DNA of 64,000 bases from Octopus sinensis (Eukaryota): contig NC_043025.1 of assembly GCF_006345805.1 (NCBI RefSeq), forward strand, positions 15,872,001-15,936,000, read 5' to 3'. Positions 19,871 to 64,000 of the stretch are shown in pieces. Under the pieces are notes generated by a model. It had not been told where the DNA came from. It did no database searches and worked only from the letters and a program-made list of their open reading frames with translations. The first letter of the stretch is position 1. Each line of letters opens with the position of its first letter. A program made the position numbers and the translations under genes.

Positions 19871-19954
19871 TATATACACACATATTGCATATATATCGAT
19901 ATATAGAAATATATATATATATATATACAAATATATGCATGTGTGTGTGTGTAT

Positions 19955-20340
19955 GAGTGGATGTGTGGTAAGTAGCTTGCTTACGAACCACAGGTTCCGG
20001 GTTCAGTCCCACTGCATGGCACTTGGTAAAGTGTCTTCTGCTATAGCCTGGGCCGACCAAAGCCATGTGAGTGGATTTGGTAGACGGAAACTGAAAGAAG
20101 CCCGTCGTATATATGTATATATATTGTGTATGTTTGTGTGTTGTGTTTGCCCCCCTCACCCAACATCGCTTGACAACCGATGCTGGTGTGTTTATGTCCC
20201 CGTAACTTAGCGGTTCGGTAAGACTGATAGAATAAGTACTAGGCTTACAAAGAATAAGTCCTGAGGTCGATTTCCTCGACTAAAGGCCGGTGCTCCAGCA
20301 TGGCCACAGTCAAATGACTGAAACAAATGAATGAATAAAA
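19955..20340 (+). mobile_element. tRNA-derived SINE (copies also at ~23650-24040 and ~27355-27745)
   Basis: GGGTTCAGTCCC B box and family match to 44553-44947. Confidence 0.85.
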
Positions 20341-21147: not shown

Positions 21148-22026
21148 ATGAAATCTGGCAAATGCAAGCTTTCCTTTCAGTACATGACACGGCTGTCCCT
21201 CACCAGGGTCTCAGAGGCCCACACCTCCCACGCCCTCAGAGTTGGCACACTCAATGTTGGCACATTGAAAGGTAGGTGTGGAGAGCTGCTTGAACGGAGA
21301 CGTGTAGATTTATGCTGCATCCAAGAAGTAAAGGTGGAGAGGAGGTTCCTCACAGGCAAGGAACACAGGTACAAGATTTTCTGGGCAGGGAACACTGATG
21401 GGGTCGGGGGCGTGGGTATGCTTCTTGCGGAGAAATGGGTAGATAAGGTAATCGAGGTAGTCAGAGTAAGTGACAGAGTACTTAAGATTAGATTAGTGCT
21501 TCACCATAGGTCAGCTACCATCATCTCGGCATATGCCCCTCAACCAGGGCTACCGGAAGGACAGAAAGATCAATTCTATGACACCCTATTGCGGACTACC
21601 TCGTTGACAAATGACAGTGACCTTCTCTTTGTGGCAGGTGATTTCAATGGACATGTCGGGGGCTTCCATGGCGTTCATGGAGGTTACGGTTTTGGCTCTC
21701 GCAATGAGGAGGGAACCAGGCTGCTGGAGTTCTGCGATGCAAATGACCTTATGATTTGCAATACCAGCTTCAGGAAACCCACCTCTCACCTAGTCACCTA
21801 CCGTTCTGGCAGACACACTAGCCAGATTGACTACATCCTAGCCAGAAAGCGGGAAAGAGGGCTGCTTATAAATGCCAAAACCTTCCCAGGCGAAGAATGT
21901 ACTCCTCAACAAAGATTAGTAGTTAACGACTTCAGGATCAGAGCTAAATACATGCACCAGAATTCTGTATGGTATTATCCATATAAATCCGGGGGTGATT
22001 ATAATCAAAATAAGCAACAAGAATGA
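21148..22026 (+). CDS. RTE apurinic-like endonuclease domain, truncated at ~21950 by an unrelated insert
   Basis: 292-aa ORF with VGTLNV, CIQE, SAYAPQ, GDFNGH and SQIDYIL motifs. Confidence 0.9.
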   Translation: MKSGKCKLSFQYMTRLSLTRVSEAHTSHALRVGTLNVGTLKGRCGELLERRRVDLCCIQEVKVERRFLTGKEHRYKIFWAGNTDGVGGVGMLLAEKWVDKVIEVVRVSDRVLKIRLVLHHRSATIISAYAPQPGLPEGQKDQFYDTLLRTTSLTNDSDLLFVAGDFNGHVGGFHGVHGGYGFGSRNEEGTRLLEFCDANDLMICNTSFRKPTSHLVTYRSGRHTSQIDYILARKRERGLLINAKTFPGEECTPQQRLVVNDFRIRAKYMHQNSVWYYPYKSGGDYNQNKQQE

Positions 22027-24859: not shown

Positions 24860-25660
24860 ATGAATCTGGCAAATGCAAGCTTTCTTTCAGGTACATGACA
24901 CGGCTGTCCCTCATCCCAGGGTCTCAGAGGCCCACACCTCCCACGCCCTCAGAGTTGGCACACTCAATGTTGGCACATTGAAAGGTAGGTGTGGAGAGCT
25001 GCTTGAACGGAGACGTGTAGATTTATGCTGCATCCAAGAAGTAAAGGTGGAGAGGAGGTTCCTCACAGGCGACAAGGAACACAGGTACAAGATTTTCTGG
25101 GCAGGGAACACTGATGGGGTCGGGGGCGTGGGTATGCTTCTTGCGGAGAAATGGGTAGATAAGGTAATCGAGGTAGTCAGAGTAAGTGACAGAGTACTTA
25201 AGATTAGATTAGTGCTTCACCATAGGTCAGCTACCATCATCTCGGCATATGCCCCTCAACCAGGGCTACCGGAAGGACAGAAAGATCAATTCTATGACAC
25301 CCTATTGCGGACTACCTCGTTGACAAATGACAGTGACCTTCTCTTGTGGCAGGTGATTTCAATGGACATGTCGGGGGCTTCCATGGCGTTCATGGAGGTT
25401 ACGGTTTGGCTCTCGCAATGAGGAGGGAACCAGGCTGCTGGAGTTCTGCGATGCAAATGACCTTATGATTTGCAATACAGCTTCAGGAAACCCACCTCTC
25501 ACCTAGTCACCTACCGTTCTGGCAGACACACTAGCCAGATTGACTAATCCTAGCCAGAAAGCGGGAAAGAGGGCTGCTTATAAATGCCACAAACCTTCCA
25601 GGCGAAGAATGTACTCCTCAACAAAGATTAGTAGTTAACGACTTCAGGATCAGAGCTAAA
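24860..25660 (+). pseudogene. RTE APE endonuclease, copy 2 (frameshifted)
   Basis: Duplicate of the 21148 ORF. Confidence 0.88.
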
Positions 25661-25749
25661 TACATGCACCAGAATTCTGTATGGTATTATCCATATAAAT
25701 CCGTGGGGTGGTGATTATAATCAAAATAAGCAACAAGAATGACTCCGGA

Positions 25750-25840
25750 AATTTGGTATGATTGTTTCGTACTACATCATTTTATTAAATGTTGTAAGTA
25801 TTAAAACAGTTTTAAAATACTGAGCACTCATCAGCCAATT
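25750..25840 (-). ncRNA. hammerhead-like motif with branched stem II (copies at 22034-22122 and 29454-29544)
   Basis: AAUUGG-CUGAUGA-GUGCU..two hairpins..AGUAC-GAAA-CAAUCA-UA-CCAAAUU; canonical core. Confidence 0.7.
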
Positions 25841-28565
25841 ATAGAGGTTTTCCATTAATACAAAAATTTTAATATCAAGTGGCAACATTATGGAGAAGGT
25901 AGATACATAGACAAAGATGTGGATTTAAATTTAAGAACATTTGAGGTAGTGGGCCCATCAACTGAATGACTAAGATTCAGTTGTTCCAGACTGCTGAAAG
26001 GTTGTGAGAGGGAAGAACAAATGAAGGAGACAAAGATTTTCTATTTATAGAAATGGGATAAAGGGGATGTCAGAGCTCCATAAAGGAATTCATGTTGAAG
26101 ACAGCAATTACCACTACCAAATGCCAATTACTACTATTTGATGAACAGATTTGGCATTAGGAGAACTAGGTCATGTCAAGTGGTCACAATAATATTCACA
26201 GAGAATGCGGAGACCTTACAAACCCTATGCACATCATCACAACAGTTGGTCTATAAGTTCCGAGTACATTGACACGTTAGAATAAAGGAAAAATATAAAT
26301 CTAAAATTATTCATTATGAGTAGGCAAGTACTTATTAACTGGGGGGAAAACCTTATTAATCAAGTGAACATATTAGGGGTCAAAATATATACTAAGAAAG
26401 ATGGAAGAAGAAAAATCAAAGAAGGAAGAAATTCGTAGGTTAGTAGAAGGTGATTAATAATATGAAGAGAGGTAATTTAGAAGAGTAAATTATTCAGATT
26501 TCATGGATAGTGAGTTGATATTAATGAATTAAAAAATAGGATCTATTGGAATAAAATTTGCTACCTGAGGATAAAGGCTAATTAGTTAGGATGAGGATAG
26601 CTGTGTGAAAAAGTGTGTCACACCTTAGCGGTTGAGAGAAACTGTGGAAGAGGTAGACCAGGAAGACCTGGGATGAGATGTTGAAGCACGACCTTCGAAC
26701 ATTAGGGACCAAGACTTTGGAAATATGATGTGCTTGAGAAGACTTGGCAAACCAAGTGAGACCATAACATGGCCTTTACCAGGGGTGTAACCAGCCCACT
26801 TATGCGTACCTTCCCTTCATTGGACACTAAACTCTGCTTGCAAAGGCCTGTTGAGACAAGTGAAATCAAAATCAATTTCAATGACGGCATCCGTTCTAGC
26901 AGGGTGCAAAGAGCACCATACGAGTGTGATCGTTGCCAGAGGGGCTAACTGGCTTCTGTGCCGGTGGCACATGAAAGGCACCATTCGAGCGTGATCGTTA
27001 CCAGCATCGCCCTACTGGCACTTGTGCCGGTGGCATGTGTAAAAAGATTCGAGCAAAGTTGTTGCCAGTACTGCCTGACTGACCCCCATGCCAGTGGCAC
27101 GTAAAAAGCACCCACTACACTCTTGGAGTGGTTGGTGTTAGGAAGGGCATCCAGCTGTAGAAACTCTGCCAGATCAAGATTGGAGCCTGGTGCAGCCATC
27201 TGGTTCGCCAGCTCTCAGTCAAATCGTCCAACCCATGCTAGCATGGAAAGCAGACGTTAAACAATGATGATATATACACACATATTTGCATATATATCGA
27301 TATATAGAAATATATATATATATATATACAAATATATGCATGTGTGTGTGTGTATGAGTGGATGTGTGGTAAGTAGCTTGCTTACGAACCACATGGTTCC
27401 GGGTTCAGTCCCACTGCATGGCACCTTGGTAAAGTGTCTTCTGCTATAGCCTCGGGCCGACCAAAGCCATGTGAGTGGATTTGGTAGACGGAAACTGAAA
27501 GAAGCCCGTCGTATATATGTATATATATATGTGTATGTTTGTGTGTTGTGTTTGCCCCCCTCACCCAACATCGCTTGACAACCGATGCTGGTGTGTTTAT
27601 GTCCCCGTAACTTAGCGGTTCGGCTAAGACTGATAGAATAAGTACTAGGCTTACAAAGAATAAGTCCTGAGGTCGATTTCCTCGACTAAAGGCGGTGCTC
27701 CAGCATGGCCACAGTCAAATGACTGAAACAAATGAATGAATAAAAAATATAATTCTGTGATTTGTAACCTCAACACAGGAGAGTCTCTTTTTCAAGGATG
27801 GACTTTATGAAATTTTACTCATCATACATTGAAGGACAAATCTTTCAATTTACAATTTAATATAGTGGAACATTTAGTATATGTGTGTGTGACAAAACAC
27901 GGATTTCAGAAAAATGACCAGCTAAGCGATTTTAACTTTCAACCTCATCCATTCATATTTTTATGCGTAGATTCGTAACCCTAACCCCTTCCCCCTCGTT
28001 CTCTATTATCTATTTCTCTATCTTGTAAACATGGCACCGATAGCTTCCTGTCTGTCTTAAGATCTTGCATTTTTCTATTCCTCTTTTATTTCAGGTTTAT
28101 CCCTTCGTTATTCCATTCTCCCGAATTCCCTACAAAAATATTCTTTCTTCCTTAACGTCTGACCACCTAAGGCTCTGACCCCACCCCCTCTGACCCACTG
28201 TCTCTCTCTTTCGACTTAGCACTGCGGTTTTCATTCAATTAAATTATGTTTTCCTCAAATCCCAAGTTTCAACTTTCAACTCTATCTCACGATTCGGCAT
28301 TGGCTGTTTCAGTAATTTTTGTTGCAGAGAATTCCCTACGAATAATCTTCTCCCTCGTGTCTGTCCCTCAACCTCGTTGCTCCTTCGCGGTGCGCCCGCC
28401 CGCCCTCCCACCCCCTCCACCAATACCGGAAGTTTCTACCTCTGTCTTACATGGCTATCCCCCCCCCCCACGAATACCCCCACCGGCACCCCTATGTAGG
28501 GTTTATTGTGATCATATAGCGCAAAAACTGTGAAATGTATGCAGGTTGTAGTCTAGAGTCTCAGT

Positions 28566-29370
28566 ATGAAATCTGGCAAATGCAAGCTTTCCTTTCAGGT
28601 ACATGACACGGCTGTCCCTCATCCCAGGGTCTCAGAGGCCCACACCTCCCACGCCCTCAGAGTTGGCACACTCAATGTTGGCACATTGAAAGGTAGGTGT
28701 GGAGAGCTGCTTGAACGGAGACGTGTAGATTTATGCTGCATCCAAGAAGTAAAGGTGGAGAGGAGGTTCCTCACAGGCAAGGAACACAGGTACAAGATTT
28801 TCTGGGCAGGGAACACTGATGGGGTCGGGGGCGTGGGTATGCTTCTTGCGGAGAAATGGGTAGATAAGGTAATCGAGGTAGTCAGAGTAAGTGACAGAGT
28901 ACTTAAGATTAGATTAGTGCTTCACCATAGGTCAGCTACCATCATCTCGGCATATGCCCCTCAACCAGGCTACCGGAAGGACAGAAAGATCAATTCTATG
29001 ACACCCTATTGCGGACTACCTCGTTGACAAATGACAGTGACCTTCTCTTTGTGGCAGGTGATTTCAATGGACATGTCGGGGGCTTCCATGGCGTTCATGG
29101 AGGTTACGGTTTTGGCTCTCGCAATGAGGAGGGAACCAGGCTGCTGGAGTTCTGCGATGCAAATGACCTTATGATTTGCAATACCAGCTTCAGGAAACCA
29201 CCTCTCACCTAGTCACCTACCGTTCTGGCAGACACACTAGCCAGATTGACTACATCCTAGCCAGAAAGCGGGAAAGAGGGCTGCTTATAAATGCCAAAAC
29301 CTTCCCAGGCGAAGAATGTACTCCTCAACAAAGATTAGTAGTTAACGACTTCAGGATCAGAGCTAAATAC
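28566..29370 (+). pseudogene. RTE APE endonuclease, copy 3 (frameshifted)
   Basis: Duplicate of the 21148 ORF. Confidence 0.88.
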
Positions 29371-30302
29371 ATGCACCAGAATTCTGTATGGTATTATCCA
29401 TATAAATCCGTGGGGTGATTATAATCAAAATAAGCAACAAGAATGACTCCGGAAATTTGGTATGATTGTTTCGTACTACATCATTTTATTAAATGTTGTA
29501 AGTATTAAAACAGTTTTAAAATACTGAGCACTCATCAGCCAATTATAGAGGTTTTCCATTAATACAAAAATTTTAATATCAAGTGGCAACATTATGGAGA
29601 AGGTAGATACATAGACAAAGATGTGGATTTAAATTTTAAGAACATTTGAGGTAGTGGAGCCCATCAACTGAATGACTAAGATTCAGTTGTTCCAGACTGC
29701 TGAAAGGTTGTGAGAGGGAAGAACAAATGAAAGGAGACAAAGATTTTCTATTTATAGAAATGGGATAAAGGGGATGTCAGAGCTCCATAAAAGGAATTCA
29801 TGTTGAAGACAGCAATTACCACTACCAAATGCCAATTACTACTATTTGATGAACAGATTTGGCATTAGGAGAACTAGGTCAATGTCAAGTGGTCACAATA
29901 ATATTCACAGAGAATGCGGAGACCTTACAAACCCTATGCACATCATCACAACAGTTGGTCTATAAGTTCCGAGTACATTGACACGTTAGAATAAAGGAAA
30001 AATATAAATCTAAAATTTATTCAATTATGAGTAGGCATAGTACTTATTAACTGGGGGGAAAACCTTATTAATCAAGTGAACATATTAGGGGTCAAAATAT
30101 ATACTAAGAAAGATGGAAGAAGAAAAATCAAAGAAGGAAGAAATTCGTAGGTTTAGTAGAAGGTGATTTAATAATATGAAGAGAGGTAATTTAGAAGAGT
30201 AAATTATTCAGATTTCATGGATAGTGAGTTGATATTAATGAATTAAAAAATAGGATCTATTGGAAATAAAATTTGCTACCTGAGGATAAAGGCTAATTAG
30301 TT

Positions 30303-31045
30303 AGGATGAGGATAGCTGTGTGAAAAAGTGTCACCTTAGCGGTTGAGAGAAACTGTGGAAGAGGTAGACCCAGGAAGACTGGGATGAGATGTTGAAGCAC
30401 GACCTTCGAACATTAGGGACCAAGACCTTTGGAAATATGATGTGCTTGAGAAGACTTGGCAAACCAAGTGAGACCATAACATGGCCTTTACCAGGGGTGT
30501 AACCAGCCCACTTATGCGTACCTTCCTTCATTGGACACTAAACTCTGCTTGCAAAGGCCTGTTGAGGCAAGTGAAATTGAAATCAAAATCAAAATTGATG
30601 ACTGGCATCCGTGCTAGTGGAGCGCTAAGAGCACCATCCGAGCGTGATCGTTGCCAGAGCAACAAGCTGTCCTCTGTGCCAGTGGCATGTAAAAAGTACC
30701 ATTCGAAGGTGATCGTTACCTGCGTCACCTTACTGGCACGTGAAAAAACATTCAAGCGAGGTTGTTACCAGTGCCGCTGGACTGACTCCTGTGCAGGCGG
30801 CACATGAAAAGTACAATTTGAGTGTGGCCGTTGCCAGTACCACCTAACTGGCCCTAGTGCCGGTAGCATTAAAAGCACCCACTACACCCTCGGAGCGGTT
30901 GGCGTTAGGAAGGGCATCCAGCTGTAGAAACTCTGCCAGATCAGATTGGAGCCTGGTGCAGCCATCTGGTTCGGCAGACTTCAGTCAAATCGTCCAACCC
31001 ATGCCAGCATGGAAATCGGACGTTAAACGATGATGATGATGATGA
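30303..31045 (+). mobile_element. 5'-truncated RTE 3' end
   Basis: CGRGRPRK C-terminus, tail repeats and (GAT)n. Confidence 0.88.
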
Positions 31046-33134: not shown

Positions 33135-36100
33135 GTGCTGGTGGCACGTAAAAAGCACCATCCGATCGTGGCCGTTGCCAGCCTGGCCTGGCCCCTGTGC
33201 CCGTGGCACGTAAAAAGCACCATCCGATTGTGGCCGTTGCCAGCCTGGCCTGGCCCCTGTGCCGGTGGCACGTAAAAAGCACCATCCGATTGTGGCCGTT
33301 GCCAGCCTGGCCTGGCCCCTGTGCCCGTGGCACGTAAAAAGCACCATCCGATCGTGGCCGTTTGCCAGCCTGGCCTGGCCCCTGTGCCCGTGGCACGTAA
33401 AAAGCACCATCCGATTGTGGCCGTTTGCCAGCCTGGCCTGGCCCCTGTGCCCGTGGCACATAAAAAGCACCATCCGATTGTGGCCGTTGCCAGCCTGGCC
33501 TGGCCCCTGTGCTGGTGGCACGTAAAAAGCACCATCCGACCGTGGCCGTTTGCCAGCCTCGTCTGGCCCCTGTGCCGGTGGCACGTAAAAAGCACCATCC
33601 GATCGTGGCCGTTTGCCAGCCTGGCCTGGCCCCTGTGCCCGTGGCACGTAAAAAGCACCATCCGATCGTGGCCGTTTGCCAGCCTGGCCTGGCCCCTGTG
33701 CCCGTGGCACGTAAAAAGCACCATCCGATCGTGGCCGTTTGCCAGCCTGGCCTGGCCCCTGTGCCCGTGGCACGTAAAAAGCACCATCCGATTGTGGCCG
33801 TTGCCAGCCTGGCCTGGCCCCTGTGCTGGTGGCACGTAAAAAGCACCATCCGATTGTGGCCGTTGCCAGCCTGGCCTGGCCCCTGTGCCCGTGGCACGTA
33901 AAAAGCACCATCCGATCGTGGCCGTTTGCCAGCCTGGCCTGGCCCCTGTGCCGGTGGCACATAAAATGCACCATCCGATCATGGCCGTTTGCCAGCCTCG
34001 CCTGGCCCCTGTGCCCGTGGCACATAAAAAGCACCATCCGACCGTGGCCGTTTGCCAGCCTGGCCTGGCCCCTGTGCCGGTGGCACATAAAATGCACCAT
34101 CCGATCATGGCCGTTTGCCAGCCTGGCCTGGCCCCTGTGCCGGTGGCACATAAAATGCACCATCCGACCGTGGCCGTTTGCCAGCCTGGCCTGGCCCCTG
34201 TGCCGGTGGCACGTAAAAAGCACCATCCGATCATGGCCGTTTGCCAGCCTCGCCTGGCCCCTGTGCCCGTGGCACATAAAATGCACCATCCGATCATGGC
34301 CGTTTGCCAGCCTCGCCTGGCCCCTGTGCCCGTGGCACATAAAATGCACCATCCGATCATGGCCGTTTGCCAGCCTCGCCTGGCCCCTGTGCCGGTGGCA
34401 CGTAAAAAGCACCATCCGATCATGGCCGTTTTCCAGCCTGGCCTGGCCCCTGTGCTGGTGGCACATAAAATGCACCATCCGATCATGGCCGTTTGCCAGC
34501 CTGGCCTGGCCCCTGTGCCGGTGGCACGTAAAAAGCACCATCCGATCATGGCCGTTTGCCAGCCTGGCCTGGCCCCTGTGCCCGTGGCACATAAAAAGCA
34601 CCATCCGATCATGGCCGTTTGCCAGCCTGGCCTGGCCCCTGTGCCGGTGGCACGTAAAAAGCACCATCCGATTGTGGCCGTTTTCCAGCCTGGCCTGGCC
34701 CCTGTGCCGGTGGCACGTAAAAAGCACCATCCGACCGTGGCCGTTTGCCAGCCTGGCCTGGCCCCTGTGCCGGTGGCATGTAAAAAGCACCATCCGACCG
34801 TGGCCGTTTGCCAGCCTGGCCTGGCCCCTGTGCCGGTGGCATGTAAAAAGCACCATCCGACCGTGGCCGTTTGCCAGCCTGGCCTGGCCCCTGTGCCGGT
34901 GGCATGTAAAAAGCACCATCCGATCCGACCGTGGCCGTTTTCCAGCCTGACCTGGCCCCTGTGCCGGTGGCATGTAAAAAGCACCATCCGACCGTGGCCG
35001 TTTTCCAGCCTGACCTGGCCCCTGTGCCGGTGGCATGTAAAAAGCACCATCCGATCGTGGCCGTTGCCAGCCTGGCCTGGCCCCTGTGCAGGTGGTACGT
35101 AAAAAGCACCATCCGATTGTGGCCGTTTTCCAGCCTGGCCTGGCCCCTGTGCCGGTGGCATGTAAAAAGCACCATCCGACCGTGGCCGTTTGCCAGCCTG
35201 GCCTGGCCCCTGTGCCGGTGGCACATAAAAAGCACCATCCGATCATGGCCGTTTGCCAGCCTCGCCTGGCCCCTGTGCCGGTGGCATGTAAAAAGCACCA
35301 TCCGATCGTGGCCGTTTGCCAGCCTCGCCTGGCCCCTGTGCCGGTGGCATGTAAAAAGCACCATCCGACCGTGGCCGTTTGCCAGCCTGCCTGGCCCCTG
35401 TGCCGGTGGCATGTAAAAAGCACCATCCGACCGTGGCCGTTTGCCAGCCTGGCCTGGCCCCTGTGCCGGTGGCATGTAAAAAGCACCATCCGACCGTGGC
35501 CGTTTGCCAGCCTGGCTGGCCCCTGTGCCGGTGGCATGTAAAAAGCACCATCCGACCGTGGCCGTTTTCCAGCCTGACCTGGCCCCTGTGCCGGTGGCAT
35601 GTAAAAAGCACCATCCGACCGTGGCCGTTTTCCAGCCTGACCTGGCCCCTGTGCCGGTGGCACATAAAAAGCACCATCCGACCGTGGCCGTTTTCCAGCC
35701 TGACCTGGCCCCTGTGCCGGTGGCATGTAAAAAGCACCATCCGATCGTGGCCGTTTGCCAGCCTGGCCTGGCCCCTGTGCAGGTGGTACGTAAAAAGCAC
35801 CATCCGATTGTGGCCGTTTTCCAGCCTGGCCTGGCCCCTGTGCCGGTGGCATGTAAAAAGCACCATCCGACCGTGGCGTTTGCCAGCCTGGCCTGGCCCC
35901 TGTGCCGGTGGCATGTAAAAAGCACCATCCGACCGTGGCCGTTTTCCAGCCTGACCTGGCCCCTGTGCCGGTGGCATGTAAAAAGCACCATCCGACCGTG
36001 GCCGTTTTCAGCCTGACCTGGCCCCTGTGCGGTGGCATGTAAAAAGCACCATCCGATCGTGGCCGTTTGCCAGCCTGGCCTGGCCCCTGTGCAGGTGGTA

Positions 36101-39100
36101 CGTAAAAAGCACCATCCGATTGTGGCCGTTTTCCAGCCTGGCCTGGCCCCTGTGCCGGTGGCATGTAAAAAGCACCATCGACCGTGGCCGTTGCCAGCCT
36201 GGCCTGGCCCCTGTGCCGGTGGCACATAAAAAGCACCATCCGATCGTGGCCGTTTGCCAGCCTCGCCTGGCCCCTGTGCCGGTGGCATGTAAAAAGCACC
36301 ATCCGATCGTGGCCGTTTGCCAGCCTCGCCTGGCCCCTGTGCCGGTGGCATGTAAAAAGCACCATCCGACCGTGGCCGTTTGCCAGCCTGGCCTGGCCCC
36401 TGTGCCGGTGGCATGTAAAAAGCACCATCCGACCGTGGCCGTTTGCCAGCCTGGCCTGGCCCCTGTGCCGGTGGCATGTAAAAAGCACCATCCGACCGTG
36501 GCCGTTTGCCAGCCTGCCTGGCCCCTGTGCGGTGGCATGTAAAAAGCACCATCCGACCGTGGCCGTTTTCCAGCCTGACCTGGCCCCTGTGCCGGTGGCA
36601 TGTAAAAAGCACCATCCGACCGTGGCCGTTTTCCAGCCTGACCTGGCCCCTGTGCCGGTGGCATGTAAAAAGCACCATCCGACCGTGGCCGTTTTCCAGC
36701 CTGACCTGGCCCCTGTGCCGGTGGCATGTAAAAAGCACCATCCGATCGTGGCCGTTTGCCAGCCTGGCCTGGCCCCTGTGCAGGTGGTACGTAAAAAGCA
36801 CCATCCGATTGTGGCCGTTTTCCAGCCTGGCCTGGCCCCTGTGCCGGTGGCATGTAAAAAGCACCATCCGACCGTGGCCGTTTGCCAGCCTGGCCTGGCC
36901 CCTGTGCCGGTGGCACATAAAAAGCACCATCCGATCGTGGCCGTTTGCCAGCCTCGCCTGGCCCCTGTGCCGGTGGCATGTAAAAAGCACCATCCGATCG
37001 TGGCCGTTTGCCAGCCTCGCCTGGCCCCTGTGCCGGTGGCATGTAAAAAGCACCATCCGATCGTGGCCGTTTGCCAGCCTCGCCTGGCCCCTGTGCCGGT
37101 GGCATGTAAAAAGCACCATCCGACCGTGGCCGTTTGCCAGCCTGGCCTGGCCCCTGTGCCGGTGGCACATAAAATGCACCATCCGATCATGGCCGTTTGC
37201 CAGCCTGGCCTGGCCCCTGTGCCGGTGGCACATAAAAAGCACCATCCGACCGTGGCCGTTTGCCAGCCTGGCCTGGCCCCTGTGCCGGTGGCACATAAAA
37301 AGCACCATCCGATCGTGGCCGTTTGCCAGCCTCGCCTGGCCCCTGTGCCGGTGGCATGTAAAAAGCACCATCCGATCGTGGCCGTTTGCCAGCCTCGCCT
37401 GGCCCCTGTGCCGGTGGCACGTAAAAAGCACCATCCGATCGTGGCCGTTTGCCAGCCTGGCCTGGCCCTGTGCCGGTGGCACGTAAAAAGCACCATCCGA
37501 TTGTGGCCGTTTTCCAGCCTGGCCTGGCCCTGTGCCGGTGGCATGTAAAAAGCACACCATCCGACCGTGGCCGTTTGCCAGCCTGGCCTGGCCCCTGTGC
37601 CGGTGGCACATAAAAAGCACCATCCGATTGTGGCCGTTTGCCAGCCTGGCCTGGCCCTGTGCCCGTGGCACATAAAAAGCACCATCCGATCGTGGCCGTT
37701 TGCCAGCCTGGCCTGGCCCCTGTGCGGTGGCACGTAAAAAGCACCATCCGACCGTGGCCGTTTGCCAGCCTGGCCTGGCCCCTGTGCCGGTGGCATGTAA
37801 AAAGCACCATCCGACCGTGGCCGTTTGCCAGCCTGGCCTGGCCCCTGTGCCGGTGGCATGTAAAAAGCACCATCCGACCGTGGCCGTTTGCCAGCCTGGC
37901 CTGGCCCCTGTGCCGGTGGCATGTAAAAAGCACCATCCGACCATGGCCGTTTGCCAGCCTGGCCTGGCCCCTGTGCCGGTGGCACATAAAAAGCACCATC
38001 CGATCGTGGCCGTTTGCCAGCCTCGCCTGGCCCCTGTGCCGGTGGCATGTAAAAAGCACCATCCGACCATGGCCGTTTGCCAGCCTGGCCTGGCCCCTGT
38101 GCCGGTGGCATGTAAAAAGCACCATCCGACCGTGGCCGTTTGCCAGCCTGGCCTGGCCCCTGTGCCGGTGGCATGTAAAAAGCACCATCCGACCATGGCC
38201 GTTTGCCAGCTGGCCTGGCCCCTGTGCCGGTGGCATGTAAAAAGCACCATCCGACCATGGCCGTTTGCCAGCCTGGCCTGGCCCCTGTGCCGGTGGCATG
38301 TAAAAAGCACCATCCGACCGTGGCCGTTTGCCAGCCTGGCCTGGCCCCTGTGCCGGTGGCATGTAAAAAGCACCATCCGACCATGGCCGTTTGCCAGCCT
38401 GGCCTGGCCCCTGTGCCGGTGGCATGTAAAAAGCACCATCCGACCGTGGCCGTTTGCCAGCCTGGCCTGGCCCCTGTGCCGGTGGCACGTAAAAAGCACC
38501 ATCCGATTGTGGCCGTTTTCCAGCCTGGCCTGGCCCCTGTGCCGGTGGCATGTAAAAAGCACCATCCGATAATGGCCGTTTGCCAGCCTGGCCTGGCCCC
38601 TGTGCCGGTGGCACGTAAAAAGCACCATCCGATAATGGCCGTTTGCCAGCCTCGCCTGGCCCCTGTGCCCGTGGCACGTAAAAAGCACCATCCGACCGTG
38701 GCCGTTTGCCAGCCTCGCCTGGCCCCTGTGCCAGTGGCACGTAAAAAGCACCATCCGATCGTGGCCGTTTGCCAGCCTGGCCTGGCCCCTGTGCCAGTGG
38801 CACGTAAAAAGCACCATCCGATCGTGGCCGTTTGCCAGCCTCGCCTGGCCCCTGTGCCCGTGGCACGTAAAAAGCACCATCCGACCGTGGCCGTTTGCCA
38901 GCCTCGTCTGGCCCTGTGCCGGTGGCACGTAAAAAGCACCATCCGATCGTGGCGTTTGCCAGCCTGGCCTGGCCCCTGTGCCCGTGGCACGTAAAAAGCA
39001 CCATCCGATCGTGGCCGTTTGCCAGCCTGGCCTGGCCCCTGTGCCCGTGGCCGTAAAAAGCACCATCCGATCGTGGCCGTTTGCCAGCCTGGCCTGGCCC

Positions 39101-39500
39101 CTGTGCCCGTGGCACGTAAAAAGCACCATCCGATTGTGGCCGTTGCCAGCCTGGCCTGGCCCCTGTGCTGGTGGCACGTAAAAAGCACCATCCGATCGTG
39201 GCCGTTTGCCAGCTGGCCTGGCCCTGTGCCGGTGGCACATAAAAAGCACCATCCGATCGTGGCCGTTTGCCAGCCTGGCCTGGCCCCTGTGCCAGTGGCA
39301 CGTAAAAAGCACCATCCGATTGTGGCCGTTGCCAGCCTCGCCTGGCACCTGTGCTGGTGGCACGTAAAAAGCACCATCCGATTGTGGCCGTTTGCCAGCC
39401 TCGTCTGGCACCTGTGCTGGTGGCACGTAAAAAGCACCATCCGATTGTGGCCGTTTGCCAGCCTCGCCTGGCACCTGTGCCGGTGGCACGTAAAAAGCAC
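33135..39500 (+). repeat. 63-bp GC-rich minisatellite, ~100 copies, derived from the RTE 3' UTR unit
   Basis: Unit GTGCCGGTGGCACGTAAAAAGCACCATCCGATCGTGGCCGTTTGCCAGCCTGGCCTGGCCCCT; runs directly into the RTE terminal domain. Confidence 0.98.
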
Positions 39501-39672
39501 CCACTACACTCACGGAGTGGTTGGCGTTAGGAAGGGCATCCAGCCGTAGAAACATTGCCAGATAAGACTGGAGCCTGGTGCAGCCTTCTGGCTTCCCAGA
39601 CCCCAGTTGAACCGTCCAACCCATGCCAGCATGGAAAGCGGACGCTAAACGATGATGATGATGATGAGGATG
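39501..39672 (+). mobile_element. RTE terminal 3' domain capping the minisatellite
   Basis: CCACTACACTC..GGAAGGGCATCCAGCCGTAG..CATGGAAAGCGGACG..(GAT)n. Confidence 0.9.
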
Positions 39673-53528: not shown

Positions 53529-54443
53529 AACACCATGGTTGAAACAAGAACAAGAACAACAAATATTCTTAAAAGAGAAAAGAAACATGGTCATCCCTTA
53601 CCCAAGGGACCTTATCTTATCGCCCATCACTTGTTATGCACTCATAAATTAAATTGGTTGTATGCAAATGAGTTCATAACTGGGGTCTGGTTGGCTGGCT
53701 GCTGTGCATTTGTGCTGGTTGCCGTTGCCATGGCATGAGTTTTTGGACCACAAAGTTTTCCACCTCAAAATAGGGATAAACGAGTCCTGCCAGGTGGAGT
53801 GGCAGTTCTCAGCAGCACACCACAGTTATTACCATGAGGCGTGGCTGAGTACCCCACTTGTCCTGGGGTAAGTGGACCATCGACCCTTCCCCTCCATCTA
53901 CACTGCTTTACCTCACATTTTCTCTTCCTTTTCTCTCTTTTTATTTCTTGGAACTTTTCAATCTGTCCGACAGATTTTTTAAATAATTTTTTTTTAACTA
54001 AACACTTTGAAACTTTGGAAACTGGTAAAACAAAGTTTACTCTTAACGTTTTTGACAAAATTTTTGTATTTTAGAAGTTATTTTGTGTTAAAGTTGTCGT
54101 ATTTGGGTAATTTAAACCAATCAATGACGTGTATTCAGCTGAAGAAAATTACTGCTGCTGTTTGTGAACAACAACTTCTGGGTCCACTCCCCTAACAAAA
54201 CCCTTCTTTAATAACCAGAGGTGTTTTTATAGCAACATAGGTTGTGATTGCACGACCTGCTAGAAAAAGTAGCCCATCATATATTACATAGAAAGAAGCC
54301 CATCGTATATTATATATATATATGTCTGTGTTTGTCCACTGTCCCCGTTTGACAACCGATGCTGATATGTTTACATCCCTTTAACTTAGTGGTTCGGCAA
54401 AAGAGATTGATAGAATAAGTACTGCTTGTTAATCATTAATCAT

Positions 54444-56720
54444 TGTTGGCATCCTTTTTGTCTCGGGAGAAAATGGAGTTGCGCATAAAGTAGTCCAGTC
54501 CGGCTTTTACATTTCATGTCCTGATACATTTCCTGCTGTGGCTGTGTAGTCCTATCCTGGACAAACACTCCCTCCGGCAGGCACCGCAAATGTAGCGAAG
54601 ACTTTGCCTGGCTGGTTGTAACGTCATAGTTTCTTGTTGACATATTTTCTTGTAGTTCCATTTCTCCTCTCTCTGTCACTCCCTCTTTTACGGTACGTCG
54701 ACAATCTCCACGGTTGCTGGCAACTGCTTGACAGTTGGTAATATTGATGTTGCAGGCATTTATAACCCTTTTGCAAACATCCTTGTAACGTAAGAGCGGT
54801 CTTCCCACAGACCTAGTGCCCCTAGCAAGCTCTCCGTAGAATATGTCCTTGGGGATTCTGCCATCTTGAATACGGCTAACATGTCCAAGCCATCTCATAC
54901 GTGTGAGGACTGCAAACATGCTTAGTATTCCTGCTTGCTTGAGGACATCTTTGTTGGGGAGATGGTTATGCCATCTGATGCGAAGGATTTTCCGGAGGCA
55001 GCGCAAATGAAATATATTTAGGCGACGCTCTTGGCGTGTGAATGGCGTCCAAGTCTCACTTCCATACAGTAGAGTGCTAAGTACACATGCCTGGTAAATC
55101 TTCATTTTTGTGTTCTTGGTCAGCTTAATGTTGACCCATGCTCGTTTCGAGAGTTGGGCCATCACAGCAGCTGCCTTGCCAATGCGTATATTGAGCTCAA
55201 CATCAAGGGATAGGTTGTAGGTGACGGTAGAGCCAAGATAGGTAAATGTCTCCACCTCCTGTAATCTGTGGTCTCCAATATGTGTGTTTCGGATGTCCGG
55301 AGTAGCCTGACCCATGATGTTGGTCTTCTTGAGGCTGATAGCTAAGCCAAAATCGTTACATGCCTGCTCACAACAGCTGATGAGCCTTTTTAGGGCTTCT
55401 TCTGTGTGTGATACCAGAGCAGCATCATCAGCAAATAGCATCTCCTTGATCAGGATGCTTCTTATTTTGGTCTTGCCACGCAGGCGTGAGAGATTGAACA
55501 GTTTCCCGTCACTTCTACTCTGCAGAAACACTCCATCATCTGATGTCTGAAAGGCATGTGAGAGCAGCAGCGAGAAGAAGATGCCAAATAATGTAGGAAC
55601 AAGGACACAACCTTGCTTTACCCCATTTTTTATTTGGAAAGCGGCTGATGTTGAACCATTGTGCTGTATGGTTCCTTGCATATCATCATGGAAAGATTTG
55701 ATGATCCTCAGCAGCTTTGGTGGACATCTGTTTTTTTGGAGCAGGATGAAGAGGCCTTTTCTACTTACCAAGTCAAAGGCCTTTGTCAGATCAATGAAGG
55801 CCATATATAATGGCATTTCTGCTCTCTGGACTTCTGAAGTTGGCGTATGGAGAATATCATGTCAATAGTTGATCAGCTTCTTCTAAAGCCACACTGCGAT
55901 TCCGGATAGATTCGAGAAGCAAGTAGTTGTAGCCTGGCCAGGATAACGCGAGCAAAGGTCTTTCCAACAGTGCTTAGAAGAGATATTCCACAGTAATTGT
56001 TACAATCACCACGGTCACCTTTGTTTTTGTAAAGCGTAATGATGTTAGCATCCCGCATATCCTGAGGGACTGTACCCTCTTCCCAGCACTGACACAGAAT
56101 CTCATGAAGGTGCCGAAGCAGGATAGTGTTTTTGCCGGCTTTGATGATCTCTGAGGGGATGCCCTCTTTTCCTGGAGCCTTGTTACTTGCTAGGGAGTCA
56201 ATAGCCTTGGTGAGCTCTGCTATAGATGGTGGACTGTGAAGTTCTCACATGACTGGCAAGATCTTGACACTCTCGATTGCAGCCTCAGCTACTGTAGTCT
56301 CCCGTGAGTAGAGATCCTGGTAGTGCTCCACCCATCTATCCATTTGCTTGCTTTGATCCCTGATGAGATCTCCAGTAGTTGATTTCAGAGGGGCTGACTT
56401 GGTTGCGGATGGACCGAGGGCCTTCTTCAAACCGGAATACTTCCCACGGGTGTCGCCCCTGTCAGCAGCTGACTGGATACTCTGACAGATTTCCTGCCAA
56501 TACCTATTTGCACAGCGTCTGGCTGTCAGTTGGGTTTTATTTCTTGCCTTTCTGAGTTCTTCGAGTGACTTTGTAGAAGAGTCACTCTTGTATTGCATCA
56601 GAGCTGCACGCTTTGCTTCGATAACTGGCTCCAGCTCTGAGAGCCCAGCATTGAACCAATCTGGGTTTTGCCTTTCTCTCATGCCGAAAGTATCCATTGA
56701 TGTGGTATACAAAGCTTCCC
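54444..56720 (-). mobile_element. BovB-like RTE LINE, 5'-truncated, 19-bp TSD
   Basis: FIDLTKAFD, GVKQGCVL, MLFADD, LLYGSETW in ORF 54440-55816; CGAGAC..AAGGATGCC end; CTTGTTAATCATTAATCAT at 54425-54443 and 56721-56739. Confidence 0.93.
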
Positions 56721-56894
56721 CTTGTTAATCATTAATCATAATAATACTTTTATTGTAGCTTTTAATTTTGTTGATAAAAATAAATGAGTATTGTACGTAT
56801 TTTCTTTTTAACTGTTGACTTATTTTTGCACCACTCTGTATAATCATGTGACTTATTATACTCAGGTAATTAGATCTATCTATCTATCTATCTA

Positions 56895-57804: not shown

Positions 57805-57845
57805 ACTAGCATTAAAGACCCGTCGTTCCGGGTCATAGTGCTAGT
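57805..57845. other. 41-bp hairpin with CTAG at both ends (Helitron-terminus-like)
   Basis: ACTAGCA..GACCCG tcgttc CGGGTC..TGCTAGT within TA-rich tracts. Confidence 0.5.
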
Positions 57846-57989
57846 GCATATATATATGTGTATATATATGTGTACATATTACATGTACATCTATATATAT
57901 ACATCTACACATAAAATACAAAATACAAAGTTATATCTTGATATCGCTAGTGATAACAATACTCAAAATATATAACAGACTGGAATTGT

Positions 57990-58282
57990 TAGCCCATCTC
58001 TTGTAATTTCGATCAATTGTATCTTGTCCTCCCTCTTGTATAGAAGTGTGGCTACAATCCAGCCTACCTCTACTTGGGGTATTAAAAATTTTTTTGTGGG
58101 ACGTACTACGTCCCAGATATAAAGGTAAAAATAAAATATTTCCACTTTGCAAGTTCAAGTCGAGTACTCCTTTGCGCGCTCCATTGATTCGAACCTTGCT
58201 TCTATTGTGGCGAATTTACCGCCTCTGATTAGATACCTTTCATAGTCGCACCAAGACACTTTTCGAAGGTGCTTTCCTCCAT
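57990..58282 (-). pseudogene. decayed, diverged homologue of the array's Gag/ORF1-like gene
   Basis: Across frameshifts FEKCLGATMK/YLIRGGKFATIEARF../LPLYLGR..KIFNTP/QVEVGWIVATLL aligns colinearly with IEKCLGDIMG..YVSRGKKFGTVEVRC..WPSYKGR..KIPNIPPEVKTEWLATAIL. Confidence 0.75.
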
Positions 58283-58524
58283 GTGATTTTATTACTACCC
58301 ACAAGGGGCGAACATAGATGGGACAGTACAATCGGGGAACTTAAAATAAGAAAGCCAATGACAAAAAAAGGAAAAAATAATAGTAAAAAATGACATATGA
58401 AAGAATATTTACAATGAGATGTAAATGCCCACTCGATCCCCGGAATCGAGAGGTTACATTTTCGTCACATATATTTCACAATATTTTCTTTTTCCTCTTC
58501 TTTCTTCTCTCTCTTCTCACAATT

Positions 58525-59925
58525 CTATACGTATTCCATAATACCTTTCAATTCTCTAAAGTCAATCACTGAGCCCTCAGGCAGCCGCTCTCTCACTCGA
58601 ACACTCGTGTAAAATATTACACTCTCTCCGGCAGCTCTGAGGAACTCAGCGACTCTTTCTTGGGGATTAGAGCAGTCTCCTGCCACTGATCGGTCATCCT
58701 GTTGACCCATATATGTCCCTCCGTATTACATGTCAAGTCTTTCATTCAGGGCAGAAATGGAAGGTTATTAACTTGTAGTAGCAGTAATCTTGTTTCCGTC
58801 CTACGTTTTCCCTCGTTTTTCTTTTCGGGCTTATTTCTTCCTTGTTCTCCTCTCTTTGTTTCTCTCTTTCTCTCTTTTTGCTTTCTTTTCTTTCTTCTTC
58901 CTTCTCTTGTCTTTTTGGTTCTTTGTCTGTTCTCTCTTTCTCTCGTGTTTTATGTTCCTTTTCTTTTTCTTTTTGTGTGCCGTCTTTTCTTTTCGTTTGA
59001 TCTGATCTTTCTCTTGTTTTTTTCCTGTTGGTTCTTTTTCCTTTTTTTTTTCCTGACTGTTTGGTTCTTTCTATTTCTTTCTTTTCTTTTATTTCTTTTT
59101 CCTTCATTGACTTATTATTTCCTTTCTCTTGTTGTTTTGTTTCCTTTTCTATGTTTTCTTTTTCATTTACCGTATTCTTTTTTCTTCAAGTTCCTGCTCG
59201 CACTCCGCTACGAATTCGTATAACGGGCACTCTTTTTTAATGTGCCCCCTTGTCCCGCACAAGTAACAGTTTGGTTTTCTTCCTCTACAATTACACTGAG
59301 GGTTTTCTCATCTTCAATTTCTATTCTGTAGGGGAACCTTTCAATGTCCTCTTTTGTGGCCATCAAACACAGTTCTACCCCATATCCTCTCCAGTTTACC
59401 GCGTTGGACTCCTTAAAGGATTCCACCTCCACTTCCTCTTCTGCTGCTCCTAGAATAGCTGTTGCCAGCCATTCTGTTTTCACTTCTGGGGGTATATTCG
59501 GGATTTTAACCCGGACCCCTCTTCTTCCTTGTATGAGGGCCACATTATAAATGTTTCGCTCTTAGTACAGTGGTAGCCAGTGAGGCTGCAATTTCTTCCG
59601 TTGCACATCTCACCTCCACCGTACCAAATTTCTTGCCTCTACTCACGTAGGTCGATTTCCCCATTATGTCTCCCAGACATTTTTCGATTTCGGCTATCTC
59701 CACTCTTGCCAGTTTCTTCGTATTTTTGTCTTGGGTTCTATATGTCACTGTCTTGTTTTCTTTGTCCTCTTTTGCTTTCGCGGGGGGGATTAGCTTCACG
59801 CTATCACCCTCCCTTTTGAAGAGCTTTTCATATTCTTTGAGTTTACTCTTCTCAAAGAAAACATCCTTCACGATTATCGACGAATCATTATTTTTCTTTC
59901 CCGTGACCCCCGCGTAAGTCGCCAT
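58525..59925 (-). CDS. Gag/ORF1-like zinc-knuckle protein, copy 1 (frameshifted, ~466 aa reconstructed)
   Basis: ORF pieces 59545-59925, 59208-59543, 58742-59107 and 58525-58710 tile one reading. Confidence 0.7.
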
Positions 59926-60301
59926 GACTAGAGGGTCAATTCACCTTCTTCGGAAGGTTTCCACACGTGGAGGCAAACACCTCGCGCGATAATAATCAAT
60001 TTACACAACAAAATTTCACTGTCTAGTCACAGATAACAACACGTATAGCTTGGAGCCATGTGATTTTATTATTACCCACAAGGGGCGAACATAGAGAGGA
60101 CAATACAATCAGGGAACTTAAAATAAGAAAGCGAATGACAAGAAAAGGAAAAAATAAAAAGTAAAAAATGACATATGAAAGAATATTTACAATGAGATGT
60201 AAATGCCCACTCGATCCCCGGAATCGAGAGGTTACATTTTCGTCACATAATTTCACAATATTTTCTTTTTTCTCTTCTTTCTTCTCTCTCTTCTCACAAT
60301 T

Positions 60302-61698
60302 CTATACGTATTCCATAATAGCTTTCAATTCTCTAAAGTCAATCACTGAGCCCTCAGGCAGCCGCTCTCTCACTCGAACACTCGTGTAAAACATTACACT
60401 CTCTCCGGCAGCTCTGAGGAACTCAGCGACTCTTTCTTCGGGGATTAGAGCAGTCTCCTGCCACTGATCGGTCATCCTGTTGACCCATATATGTCCCTCC
60501 GTATTACATGTCAAGTCTTTCATTTCGGGGCAGAAATGGAAGGTTATTAACTTGTAGAAGCAGTAATCTTGTTTCCGTCCTACGTTTTCCTTCGTTTTTC
60601 TTTTCGGGCTTATTTCTTCCTTGTTCTCCTCTCTTTGTTTCTCTCTTTCTCTCTTTTTGCTTTCTTTTCTTTCTTCTTCCTTCTCTTGTCTTTTTGGTTC
60701 TTTGTCTGTTCTCTCTTTCTCTCGTGTTATGTTCCTTTTCTTTTTCTTTTTGTGTGCCGTCTTTTCTTTTCGTTTGATTCTGATCTTTCTCTTGTTTTTT
60801 TCTGTTGGTTCTTTTTCTTTTTTTTTTCCTGACTCTGTTTTGGTTCTATTTCTTTCTTTTCTTTTATTTCTTTTTCCTTCATTGACTTATTATTCCTTTC
60901 TCTTGTTGTTTTGTTTCCTTTTCTATGTTTTCTTTTTCATTTACCGTATTCTTCTTTTCTTCAAGTTCCTGCTCGCACTCCGCTACGAATTCGTATAACG
61001 GGCACTCTTTTTAATGTGCCCCCTTGTCCCGCACAAGTAACAGTTTGGTTTTCTTCCTCTACAATTACACTGAGGGTTTTCTCATCTTCAATTTCTATTC
61101 TGTAGGGGAACCTTTCAATGTCCTCTTTTGTGGCCATCAAACACAGTTCTACCCCATATCCTCTCCAGTTTACCGCGTTGACTCCTTAAAGGATTCCACC
61201 TCCACTTCCTCTTCTGCTGCTCCTAGAATAGCTGTTGCCAGCCATTATTTTCACTTCTGGGGGTATATTCGGGATTTTAACCCGGACCCCTCTTCTTCCC
61301 TTGTATGAGGGCCACATTATAAATGTTTCCGCTCTTAGTACAGTGGTAGCCAGTGAGGCTGCAATTTCTTCCGTTGCACATCTCACCTCCACCGTACCAA
61401 ATTTCTTGCCTCTACTCACGTAGGTCGATTTCCCCATTATGTCTCCCAGACATTTTTCGATTTCGGCTATCTCCACTCTTGCCAGTTTCTTCGTATTTTT
61501 GTCTTGGGTTCTATATGTCACTGTCTTGTTTTCTTTGTCCTCTTTTGCTTTCGCGGGGGGGATTAGCTTCACGCTATCACCCTCCCTTTTGAAGAGCTTT
61601 TCATATTCTTTGAGTTTACTCTTCTCAAAGAAAACATCCTTCACGATTATCGACGAATCATTATTTTTCTTTCCCGTGACCCCCGCGTAAGTCGCCAT
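60302..61698 (-). CDS. Gag/ORF1-like protein, copy 2 (frameshifted)
   Basis: Same N-terminus MATYAGVT and C-terminus ..RELKAIMEYV. Confidence 0.7.
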
Positions 61699-62074
61699 GA
61701 CTAGAGGGTCAATTCACCTTCTTCGGAAGGTTTCCACACGTGGAGGCAAACACCTCGCGCGATAATAATCAATTTACACAACAAAATTTCACTGTCTAGT
61801 CACAGATAACAACACGTATAGCTTGGAGCCATGTGATTTTATTATTACCCACAAGGGGCGAACATAGAGAGGACAATACAATCAGGGAACTTAAAATAAG
61901 AAAGCGAATGACAAGAAAAGGAAAAAATAAAAGTAAAAAATGACATATGAAAGAATATTTACAATGAGATGTAAATGCCCACTCGATCCCCGGAATCGAG
62001 AGGTTACATTTTCGTCACATATATTTCACAATATTTTCTTTTTTCTCTTCTTTCTTCTCTCTCTTCTCACAATT

Positions 62075-63478
62075 CTATACGTATTCCATAATAGCTTTCA
62101 ATTCTCTAAAGTCAATCACTGAGCCCTCAGGCAGCCGCTCTCTCACTCGAACACTCGTGTAAAACATTACACTCTCTCCGGCAGCTCTGAGGAACTCAGC
62201 GACTCTTTTCGGGGATTAGAGCAGTCTCCTGCCACTGATCGGTCATCCTGTTGACCCATATATGTCCCTCCGTATTACATGTCAAGTCTTTCATTTCGGG
62301 GCAGAAATGGAAGGTTATTAACTTGTAGAAGCAGTAAGTAATCTTGTTTCCGTCCTACGTTTTCCTTCGTTTTTCTTTTCGGGCTTATTTCTTCCTTGTT
62401 CTCCTCTCTTTGTTTCTCTCTTCTCTCTTTTTGCTTTCTTTTCTTTCTTCTTCCTTCTCTTGTCTTTTTGGTTCTTTGTCTGTTCTCTCTTTCTCGTGTT
62501 TTATGTTCCTTTTCTTTTTCTTTTTGTGTGCCGTCTTTTCTTTTCGTTTGATTCTGATCTTTCTCTTGTTTTTTTCCTGTTGGTTCTTTTTCCTTTTTTT
62601 TTTCCTGACTCTGTTTTGGTTCTATTTCTTTCTTTTCTTTTATTTCTTTTTCCTTCATTGACTTATTATTCCTTTCTCTTGTTGTTTTGTTCCTTTTCTA
62701 TGTTTTCTTTTTCATTTACCGTATTCTTCTTTTCTTCAAGTTCCTGCTCGCCCTCCGCTACGAATTCGTATAACGGGCACTCTTTTTTAATGTGCCCCCT
62801 TGTCCCGCACAAGTAACAGTTTGGTTTTCTTCCCTCTACAATTACACTGAGGGTTTTCTCATCTTCAATTTCTATTCTGTAGGGGAACCTTTCAATGTCC
62901 TCTTTTGTGGCCATCAAACACAGTTCTACCCCATATCCTCTCCAGTTTACCGCGTTGGACTCCTTAAAGGATTCCACCTCCACTTCCTCTTCTGCTGCTC
63001 CTAGAATAGCTGTTGCCAGCCATTCTGTTTTCACTTCTGGGGGTATATTCGGGATTTTAACCCGGACCCCTCTTCTTCCCTTGTATGAGGGCCACATTAT
63101 AAATGTTTCCGCTCTTAGTACAGTGGTAGCCAGTGAGGCTGCAATTTCTTCCGTTGCACATCTCACCTCCACCGTACCAAATTTCTTGCCTCTACTCACG
63201 TAGGTCGATTTCCCCATTATGTCTCCCAGACATTTTTCGATTTCGGCTATCTCCACTCTTGCCAGCTTCTTCGTATTTTTGTCTTGGGTTCTATATGTTA
63301 CAGTCTTGTTTTCTTTGTCCTCTTTTGCTTTCGCGGGGGGGATTAGCTTCACGCTATCACCCTCCCTTTTGAAGAGCTTTTCATATTCTTTGAGTTTACT
63401 CTTCTCAAAGAAAACATCCTTCACGATTATCGACGAATCATTATTTTTCTTTCCCGTGACCCCCGCGTAAGTCGCCAT
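62075..63478 (-). CDS. Gag/ORF1-like protein, copy 3 (first 270 aa open, 62666-63478)
   Basis: CYLCGTRGHIKKEC matches Cx2Cx4Hx4C; it follows an RRM-like alpha/beta region and precedes a K/E-rich tract. Confidence 0.8.
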
Positions 63479-64000
63479 GACTAGAGGGTCAATTCACCTT
63501 CTTCGGAAGGTTTCCACACGTGGAGGCAAACGCCTCGCGCGATATTAATCACTTTACACAACAAAATTTCAACGTCTAATCACAGATAACAACACGTATA
63601 GCTTGGAGCCGTGTGATTTTATTACTACCCACAAGGGGCGAACATAGAGGAGACAATACAATCGGGGAACTTAAAATAAGAAAGCGAATGACAAGAAAAG
63701 GAAAAAATAAAAGTAAAAAATGACATATGAAAGAATATTTACAATGAGATGTAAATGCCCACTCGATCCCCGGAATCGAGAGGTTACATTTTCGTCACAT
63801 ATATTTCACAATATTTTCTTTTTTCTCTTCTTTCTTCTCTCTCTTCTCACAATTCTATACATATTCCATAATAGCTTTCAAATCTCTAAAGTCAATCACT
63901 GAGCCCTCAGGCAGCCGCTCTCTCACTCGAACACTCGTGTAAAATATTACACTCTCTCCGGCAGCTCTGAGGAACTCAGCAACTCTTTCTTCGGGGATTA

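Follow-up and report, generated by a model that had tools for sequence, protein, structure and literature searches.

The window, that is, the whole stretch of 64,000 nucleotides analysed here, which corresponds to G000:C29:15872001-15936000, closes on a tandem array of four head-to-tail minus-strand units of about 1.77 kb each, with 97.3-97.9% identity to unit 1. Units 1 (58286..60062), 2 (60063..61835) and 3 (61836..63615), all on the minus strand, belong to one repeat family, which we call A. The fourth unit was found in the DNA beyond position 64000: its 3' part occupies 63616..64000 (minus strand), and the remainder runs on to L031:1394 in the next stretch. In unit 1 the reading frame, ORF1 (59925-58525), is interrupted by frameshifts in the assembly; unit 4 keeps the ORF1 frame open over 471 codons, and the ORF1 of unit 3 encodes a CCHC zinc knuckle (PF00098) at 62777..62818 on the minus strand. 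Between units 2 and 3, 7 of 1226 aligned columns differ; unit 4 differs from units 1-3 at 25-28 of these columns, and a copy on another contig does so at 21-29.

Elsewhere the window holds a 20-bp satellite (352 copies, 1-6975), a 63-bp satellite (101 copies, 33135-39501) and about three tandem 3.7-kb repeats (19174-31037), 94-96% alike, with EN and RT fragments of another LINE. At 54440-56724 (minus strand) lies a broken RT-bearing LINE fragment (PF00078, E 5e-20), which is unrelated to the array and which we take to be RTE-like.

The repeat that hosts the array

The array interrupts a copy of a second repeat family, D, for which a first look gave 1415 candidates; the best 39 other matches are 91-96% identical. 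A natural uninterrupted copy of D is 1197 bp long. The 3' part of the window copy (D positions 708-1197), a multicopy sequence 94% identical to the natural uninterrupted copy, occupies 57806..58285 on the minus strand, and the 5' part continues from L031:1395 onward, beyond the array. On the same strand D terminates in CTAG (57806..57809), followed by T, and a subterminal hairpin, GACCCG-GAACGA-CGGGTC (57817..57834), stands 7 bases before CTAG. Across the family, a pattern search gave 20 distinct 5' ends once a duplicate row was removed, and in 18 of these A precedes TC; it gave 32 distinct 3' ends after removal of three duplicates and a row on the wrong strand, and T follows all of them, 31 reading CTAG and one CTAA, with the hairpin mostly intact. 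Judged by eye, D inserts without target duplication. Non-autonomous Helitrons start with TC, end with a hairpin and CTAG, sit between A and T and capture coding fragments; we take the A/TC start, hairpin, CTAG and T of D to be such ends, and by these hallmarks, read in its sequence, D is a non-autonomous Helitron. What distinguishes it from other non-autonomous Helitrons is the captured piece, a retrotransposon ORF1 that now acts as a landing pad.

In an uninterrupted copy this ORF1 fragment spans D 645-1003; in the window the downstream part of the frameshifted, L1/Tx1-type fragment lies at 57990..58285 on the minus strand, its lower end being approximate. Compared directly with the unit ORF by tblastn, the flank at 58014-58235 gave a weak match (26% over 76 aa, E 0.012). 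A profile built from the ORF1s of 11 natural copies matched the uninterrupted D flank with 39.3, 19.4 and 5.0 bits in three frames, colinearly and over profile positions ~46-167, and the best score on the shuffled flank was 5.9 bits (200 shuffles x 6 frames). The fragment is split across frames in 21 of the 21 uninterrupted D copies scored, and the insertion point, D 709, falls inside its ORF1 codons. An intact source family was not found, the fragment being 22-40% identical to all ORF1s tried. The earlier note, which read the flank as a decayed homologue of the array's own ORF, expected the array to end beyond 64000 in the same junction motif followed by the N-terminal part of that homologue; the array does end so, with the motif in the variant CACACGG. 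The colinear ORF1 homology holds, but its carrier is a multicopy Helitron with an ORF1 fragment and not a sister retrotransposon in place. Some 34 kb past the window, at G000:C29:15969547 (L065/L171), we observed an empty D copy in the opposite orientation with CACTTGG at the site, which is the closest relative of the window host on the 3' side (6/390 columns).

Element families, junctions and passage through RNA

Family A has a single ORF, ORF1, with a CCHC knuckle and without RT, and many copies have open frames of 459-488 codons. The arrays that we fetched contain the ORF1-only families A (1.8 kb), C (1.9 kb), E (1.66-1.7 kb) and F, plus family B (5.2 kb), which encodes ORF1 and a 1132-aa ORF2 with APE endonuclease, RT and zf-RVT domains (PF03372, PF00078, PF13966). 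The PF00098 knuckle is present in all 8 aligned ORF1s; a single-sequence ORF1 structure prediction reached a pLDDT of 45 and went unused. The best solved relative of the B ORF2 is human L1 ORF2p (E 2e-67, versus 1e-26 for R2), ORF1 lies upstream of ORF2, truncated copies occur and duplications measure 16-19 bp, and by these sequence characters B is a non-LTR retrotransposon of the L1/Tx1 group. The narrower Tx1 label is provisional, drawn from site specificity and the CCHC-bearing ORF1; named Tx1 reference sequences were absent from the 120 homologues listed and from their clusters. The alignment of A and of C with B is essentially confined to the last 47-48 bp, and the ORF1 of A is ~28-35% identical to that of its partner B. 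Descent of A from B by loss of ORF2 was not borne out: the last 48 bp alone align, and the ORF1s are 28% identical over the alignment. Family E also forms tandem arrays of its own (G000:C2:57149143-57157618 and elsewhere), and in L164-L166, where it adjoins D, 11 bases are missing on the left.

The earlier note had drawn attention to a 12-mer, AAAATCACATGG, at the array/flank border and between units. It is indeed present on the minus strand at all four places, 58279-58290, 60056-60067 and 61829-61840 exactly and 63609-63620 with 1 mismatch, against 0.54 matches expected, and 4 matches were reached in 0 of 100 shuffles. The flank match is the informative one, because the other three are copies of one repeat junction. 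At 58279..58290 (minus strand) the 12-mer is made up of AAAAT, the end of the element (58290-58286), and the target core CACATGG, whose first C is ambiguous. Past the element tail, AATAAAAT(C), the sequence is that of the target and changes from site to site, so the 12-mer is tail plus target. The reading of the motif as a target site thus survives for the core, the tail being followed by other sequences elsewhere, but its first 5 bases are element tail. The 48-bp 3' tail of unit 1 (58286..58333, minus strand), which lacks poly(A), is 98% identical to that of the autonomous family B. From empty D sites and duplication lengths, the target sequence of D, meaning the 17 bases reproduced by a complete duplication, is ACATGGAGGAAAGCACC (58268..58284, minus strand). 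At its other end unit 1 starts with the tag CACATGGCTCCAAGCTA (60046..60062, minus strand), a re-created landing site that departs from the D target after base 7, and unit 3 has the tag variant CACACGG, the same as at the far junction. The proposal that each unit's 5' end regenerates the landing site is accordingly borne out.

The junctions at other loci were compared in the same way. Of 11 single-copy sites, 6 have duplications of 16-19 bp and 1 has a 12-bp match in a TA tract; at the other 4 the duplication is not clear, and the upstream sequence there is unlike that of D. The majority start with ACATG or near it, and 7 of the 11 insertions are 5'-truncated. Full-length units start with a target-like tag (ACATGGAGGAAAT, ACATGGCTCCAAG, ACGTGTCGGAAAT and others), sometimes with a few upstream-D bases before it. 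At L141 and L155 a fresh duplication of 16-18 bp precedes GAAC, where upstream D ends, and an old tag comes next, which indicates that the RNA brought its earlier landing site along. Hybrid junctions, part target and part incoming tag, are present at L128, L013 and the window array. For tags that precede units of different families, compared over 26 D-hosted loci and their 81 internal junctions, the mean edit distance is 1.34 within arrays (96 pairs) versus 4.78 between arrays (1962 pairs), and a within-array distance as low as 1.34 was reached in 0 of 2000 permutations. In C7a_25807 and C2a_6414 body lineage and tag disagree, the tag being that of their array. A loose pattern search (12,029 matches) was uninformative. 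Two other readings of the junctions were ruled out: that of an LTR with TG...CA ends, since the bases past the tail vary with the target and 5' truncations exist, and that of a tyrosine recombinase or circle junction, since the partner is an EN-RT element and duplications measure 16-19 bp.

Family A moves through RNA, as is seen from hyper-editing limited to single units and from the 5' truncation and duplication at L153. Sense-strand A>G hyper-editing marks two copies of A (173 of 201 differences in L151 and 167 of 196 in L158), and the editing ends at the unit borders, leaving upstream D and downstream B unedited. Editing reached 8 and 6 of 190 positions with a 5' G neighbour, against 99 and 114 of 294 with a 5' A neighbour, and we take A>G change with a depleted 5' G neighbour to be the signature of ADAR. 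The two copies share 83 edited sites (of 166 and 174) versus 42 by chance. Hyper-edited copies are likely ADAR-edited RNAs written back into DNA. Confined to one unit as it is, the editing shows that single units passed through RNA, and it fits insertion 5' of an earlier B. Hyper-edited copies were seen at L151:5273-7028, in the A unit of L158, from C3:72168210 onward (the 5' 1.8 kb of a B) and in the L188 region, with 163-230 A>G changes per copy. Derivation of the GCGTG tag of C3a from its edited B was considered and dropped, as an unedited B in L137-8 has the same tag before it.

Site choice and growth of the stacks

Insertion is strongly site-specific, as the earlier note had supposed. Among 29 D loci, 22 are empty, one is the window and 6 have other 3' ends at the same base. 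The D site has 494 exact matches; in a hand count of the first 100 listed, 28 are filled (3 with AAAATC, 14 with AAAACA and 11 with E-type tails) and 72 are empty. Starting from the tails, the A/B pattern has 216 exact matches genome-wide, and the first 100 listed fall into 54 loci, or 53 once a duplicated array is set aside: D holds 26 of them, a deletion variant, D', holds 4 and a second host, H, holds 11, with 12 elsewhere, so that 30 of the 53 sampled loci are at one position. Families A, B, C, E and F all stack at D 709 or at the matching position of D', and of the 6 sense ACATG sites in D we saw only 709 used. H is another multi-kb repeat; its target is AACTGAATACTC, it has a B sublineage to itself, and short tags are piled up upstream (L100-L101, L109-L112, L144, L157, L163 and others).

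The deletion variant helps to locate the address. D' lacks D 702 to ~1005, CACATGG included, and has AATTCC downstream of the insertion point; nevertheless 12 of the first 100 D' matches listed (of 171) are filled, one more row being ambiguous, with the same spacing from the purine tract upstream as in D. Ten further filled sites were fetched: the left junction is that of D' in 9, one is interrupted or ambiguous, and intact D hosts none. As D' is hit without CACATGG, the upstream side of the site likely counts for more than that motif. Intact D contains the same downstream sequence as the D' site (at D 1012) and is not hit there; D' is somewhat older (4.9% divergence versus 3.8% in D) and hosts chiefly an older B sublineage, and timing could be a partial explanation for the unused D 1012. 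Family E's ORF1 contains a comparable purine tract together with ACATGG but goes unused, which shows that the tract by itself does not suffice.

These observations bear on the earlier note's suggestion that the elements target themselves or their kin, which fails as a rule. At the codons that match the D site, the family E ORF1 reads ACATGGAAGC, and A/B/C tails were found at 0 of the first 100 matches listed (of 114), E-type ends being outside the search pattern; the D' variant is hit at the same position relative to upstream sequence in spite of its missing motif. An endonuclease that had evolved against a rival Tx1-type ORF1, and that hits D for its captured ORF1, would explain why the site lies within ORF1-coding DNA and why family E is similar at the same codons, but the E sites lack A/B/C ends, the motif is absent at the matching position from the ORF1s of A, B and C as well as from the H and D' targets, and insertions into relatives occur at 5' tags and not in ORF1. 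True kin-targeting is largely refuted for family E, and we regard it in general as very improbable. The landing site is kin-derived, in that its upstream address is ORF1-derived DNA, but likely by accident.

Taken together, sequence comparison makes it probable that the array consists of ORF1-only retroelements added one by one on the 5' side, at a fixed site in a Helitron, by the EN/RT of partner B. The B ORF2p would recognise the 48-bp tail shared by A and nick an extended site whose main determinant lies upstream (a purine tract, 6-7 bases, then C|A); reverse transcription would be primed at the nick and the second strand cut ~17 bases downstream. Transcripts may begin a few bases upstream of the unit, so that the cDNA end would carry the old tag and could anneal to the overhang, and the junction would keep a target copy, the incoming tag or a hybrid of both. 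Because upstream D and the tag are restored at the leftmost junction, the site would stay usable and the stack grow 5'-ward. In the window, unit 1 would have been the first inserted, bringing the CTCC tag (7 bases shared with the D target), which later units would have kept; the CACACGG that flanks unit 4 at either end is consistent with a duplication upon its arrival.

How the stacks multiplied admits other accounts. The array might have been founded by one or two targeted insertions and then enlarged by unequal crossing-over, gene conversion or multi-unit read-through cDNA. Many arrays are runs of near-identical units of one lineage (0-12/1226 columns for most C1a, C7a and C3a pairs; 7/1226 for window units 2 and 3), and a block A(n)-C(m)-B with one tag recurs on three contigs with unrelated D hosts, from which multi-unit insertion or local duplication likely contributes. 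Duplication alone, however, cannot give mixed-family arrays, editing is limited to single units, unit 4 is as far from its neighbours as an off-contig copy is, and units of foreign lineage have the array's tag. Units are also ordered: in D-hosted arrays the family pairs A-C (10), C-B (10) and A-B (8) compare with 5 reverse pairs, B tending to the 3' side and A to the 5' side. The nearest relative lies in the same array for 21 of 43 array units, a test blurred by shared lineages. We consider it rather unlikely that founding and duplication explain the array; crossing-over, conversion or multi-unit cDNA is probably a real contributor in some arrays and not an exclusive alternative. That D and its array spread as a composite, by Helitron transposition or segmental duplication after one ancestral event, is hardly credible. 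One array pair does exist in duplicate, the ten-unit array at G000:C7:96719136-96742510 and 96831425-96854800, 112 kb apart (a segmental or assembly duplicate), but families, tags and unit numbers differ at the site and most listed sites are empty. Filled D copies diverge from each other by 3.9% and empty ones by 3.8%, and because the filled copies are no closer, the insertions are independent and the arrays did not spread by riding D; for the sampled loci this refutes composite spread.

A further possibility concerns what selects the site: the flanks of the RNA, a 5' host extension and 3' read-through, might pair with it, so that each sublineage returns to its source host. In trees of EN and of the 3' end alike, B sublineages group according to host (D, D' or H), upstream-flank variants (TTTTCAC, TTCGAAC, GCTGCC) recur in unrelated host copies, and the stretch EN 188-200 (13 residues), which is presumably the specificity loop, has no variant common to at least two of 33 copies, D- and H-hosted ones included; the 5' truncations at 7 of 11 single-copy sites also fit. 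Against this, about seven further EN substitutions are specific to the H-hosted B lineage, host and lineage covary with age, some copies cross over between hosts (L151, L154, L161), truncated copies land in D' too, and 5' annealing accounts for the junction shape without selecting the site. We hold such guidance to be unlikely. Its bolder extension would be a guild with RNA-inherited target memory, in which sublineages are steered by base-pairing to D, D' or H and gain new specificities without a new endonuclease, seeded by Helitron-spread ORF1 landing pads; this, too, we regard as doubtful. The sorting of B sublineages by host may stem from endonuclease changes or from pairing of the RNA flanks.

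Relation to known systems

The mechanism has precedents, in R1 arrays, in Tx1 elements within DNA transposons and in HAL1, and the stacks are genome-wide. In the excerpted text on Drosophila R1 (PMC2718515), tandem head-to-tail arrays form at one target with a duplication between units and grow by insertion at the 5' duplication; in some lineages the RNA begins with bases of the upstream target, which are observed at off-target sites and serve for annealing. The octopus stacks resemble these in their head-to-tail order at one target, intervening duplications and 5' growth. They differ from the autonomous R1 of 28S rDNA in having a Helitron as target, several families, mostly units without RT and tags diverged from the host target.

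The consulted portion of PMC4494074 describes Tx1 elements aimed at other transposons: Tx1L in the piggyBac element Tx1D, and crocodilian Tx1-Mar and SINEU in Mariner-N4. Shared with Tx1L and Tx1-Mar are the site in a non-autonomous DNA transposon, tandem copies around a duplication, host 5' extensions and non-autonomous passengers. The hosts given in that portion are piggyBac, Mariner, Harbinger and LTR elements, whereas here the host is a Helitron; the passengers there are snRNA-derived SINEs, whereas here they are ORF1-coding riders, with a captured kin ORF at the site. Like HAL1 (half-L1), which the extract of PMC5753468 presents as a non-autonomous mammalian L1 derivative encoding only ORF1p, family A is non-autonomous and has ORF1 only; unlike HAL1 as presented there, it is not a simple deletion of B, is site-specific and is stacked. 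HeT-A and TART, in the excerpt from PMC5537684, build polar head-to-tail arrays of a gag-only element with RT-bearing partners at chromosome ends, with poly(A). Polarity and the mixing of gag-only with RT-bearing units are common to both systems, but the stacks here are interstitial, have duplications and lack poly(A). Young L1-Tx1 and Helitron families have been counted in an octopus, in the section seen of PMC13282606 without target analysis. Among titles and abstract openings, with Repbase, subscription journals and supplements outside the scope, we found no Tx1-type element that targets a Helitron.

The stacks amount to a natural experiment, at many loci, on site choice by APE-type retrotransposons. 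It offers contrasts between used and unused ACATG within one host, the downstream swap in D', the ignored near-match in E and sublineages sorted by host. Protein recognition and RNA-flank pairing can be tested directly against each other, which bears on engineered site-specific RNA-templated insertion, and the edited copies give a way to read the borders of inserted RNA. Dependence here has three tiers: ORF1-only riders rely on an autonomous element, which in turn uses a Helitron as its landing pad. The nearest ORF2 relatives with a name (P0020, P0029 and members of their clusters) come from a fish; their gene numbers form consecutive runs on two chromosomes, a hint that tandem stacks exist in that lineage as well.
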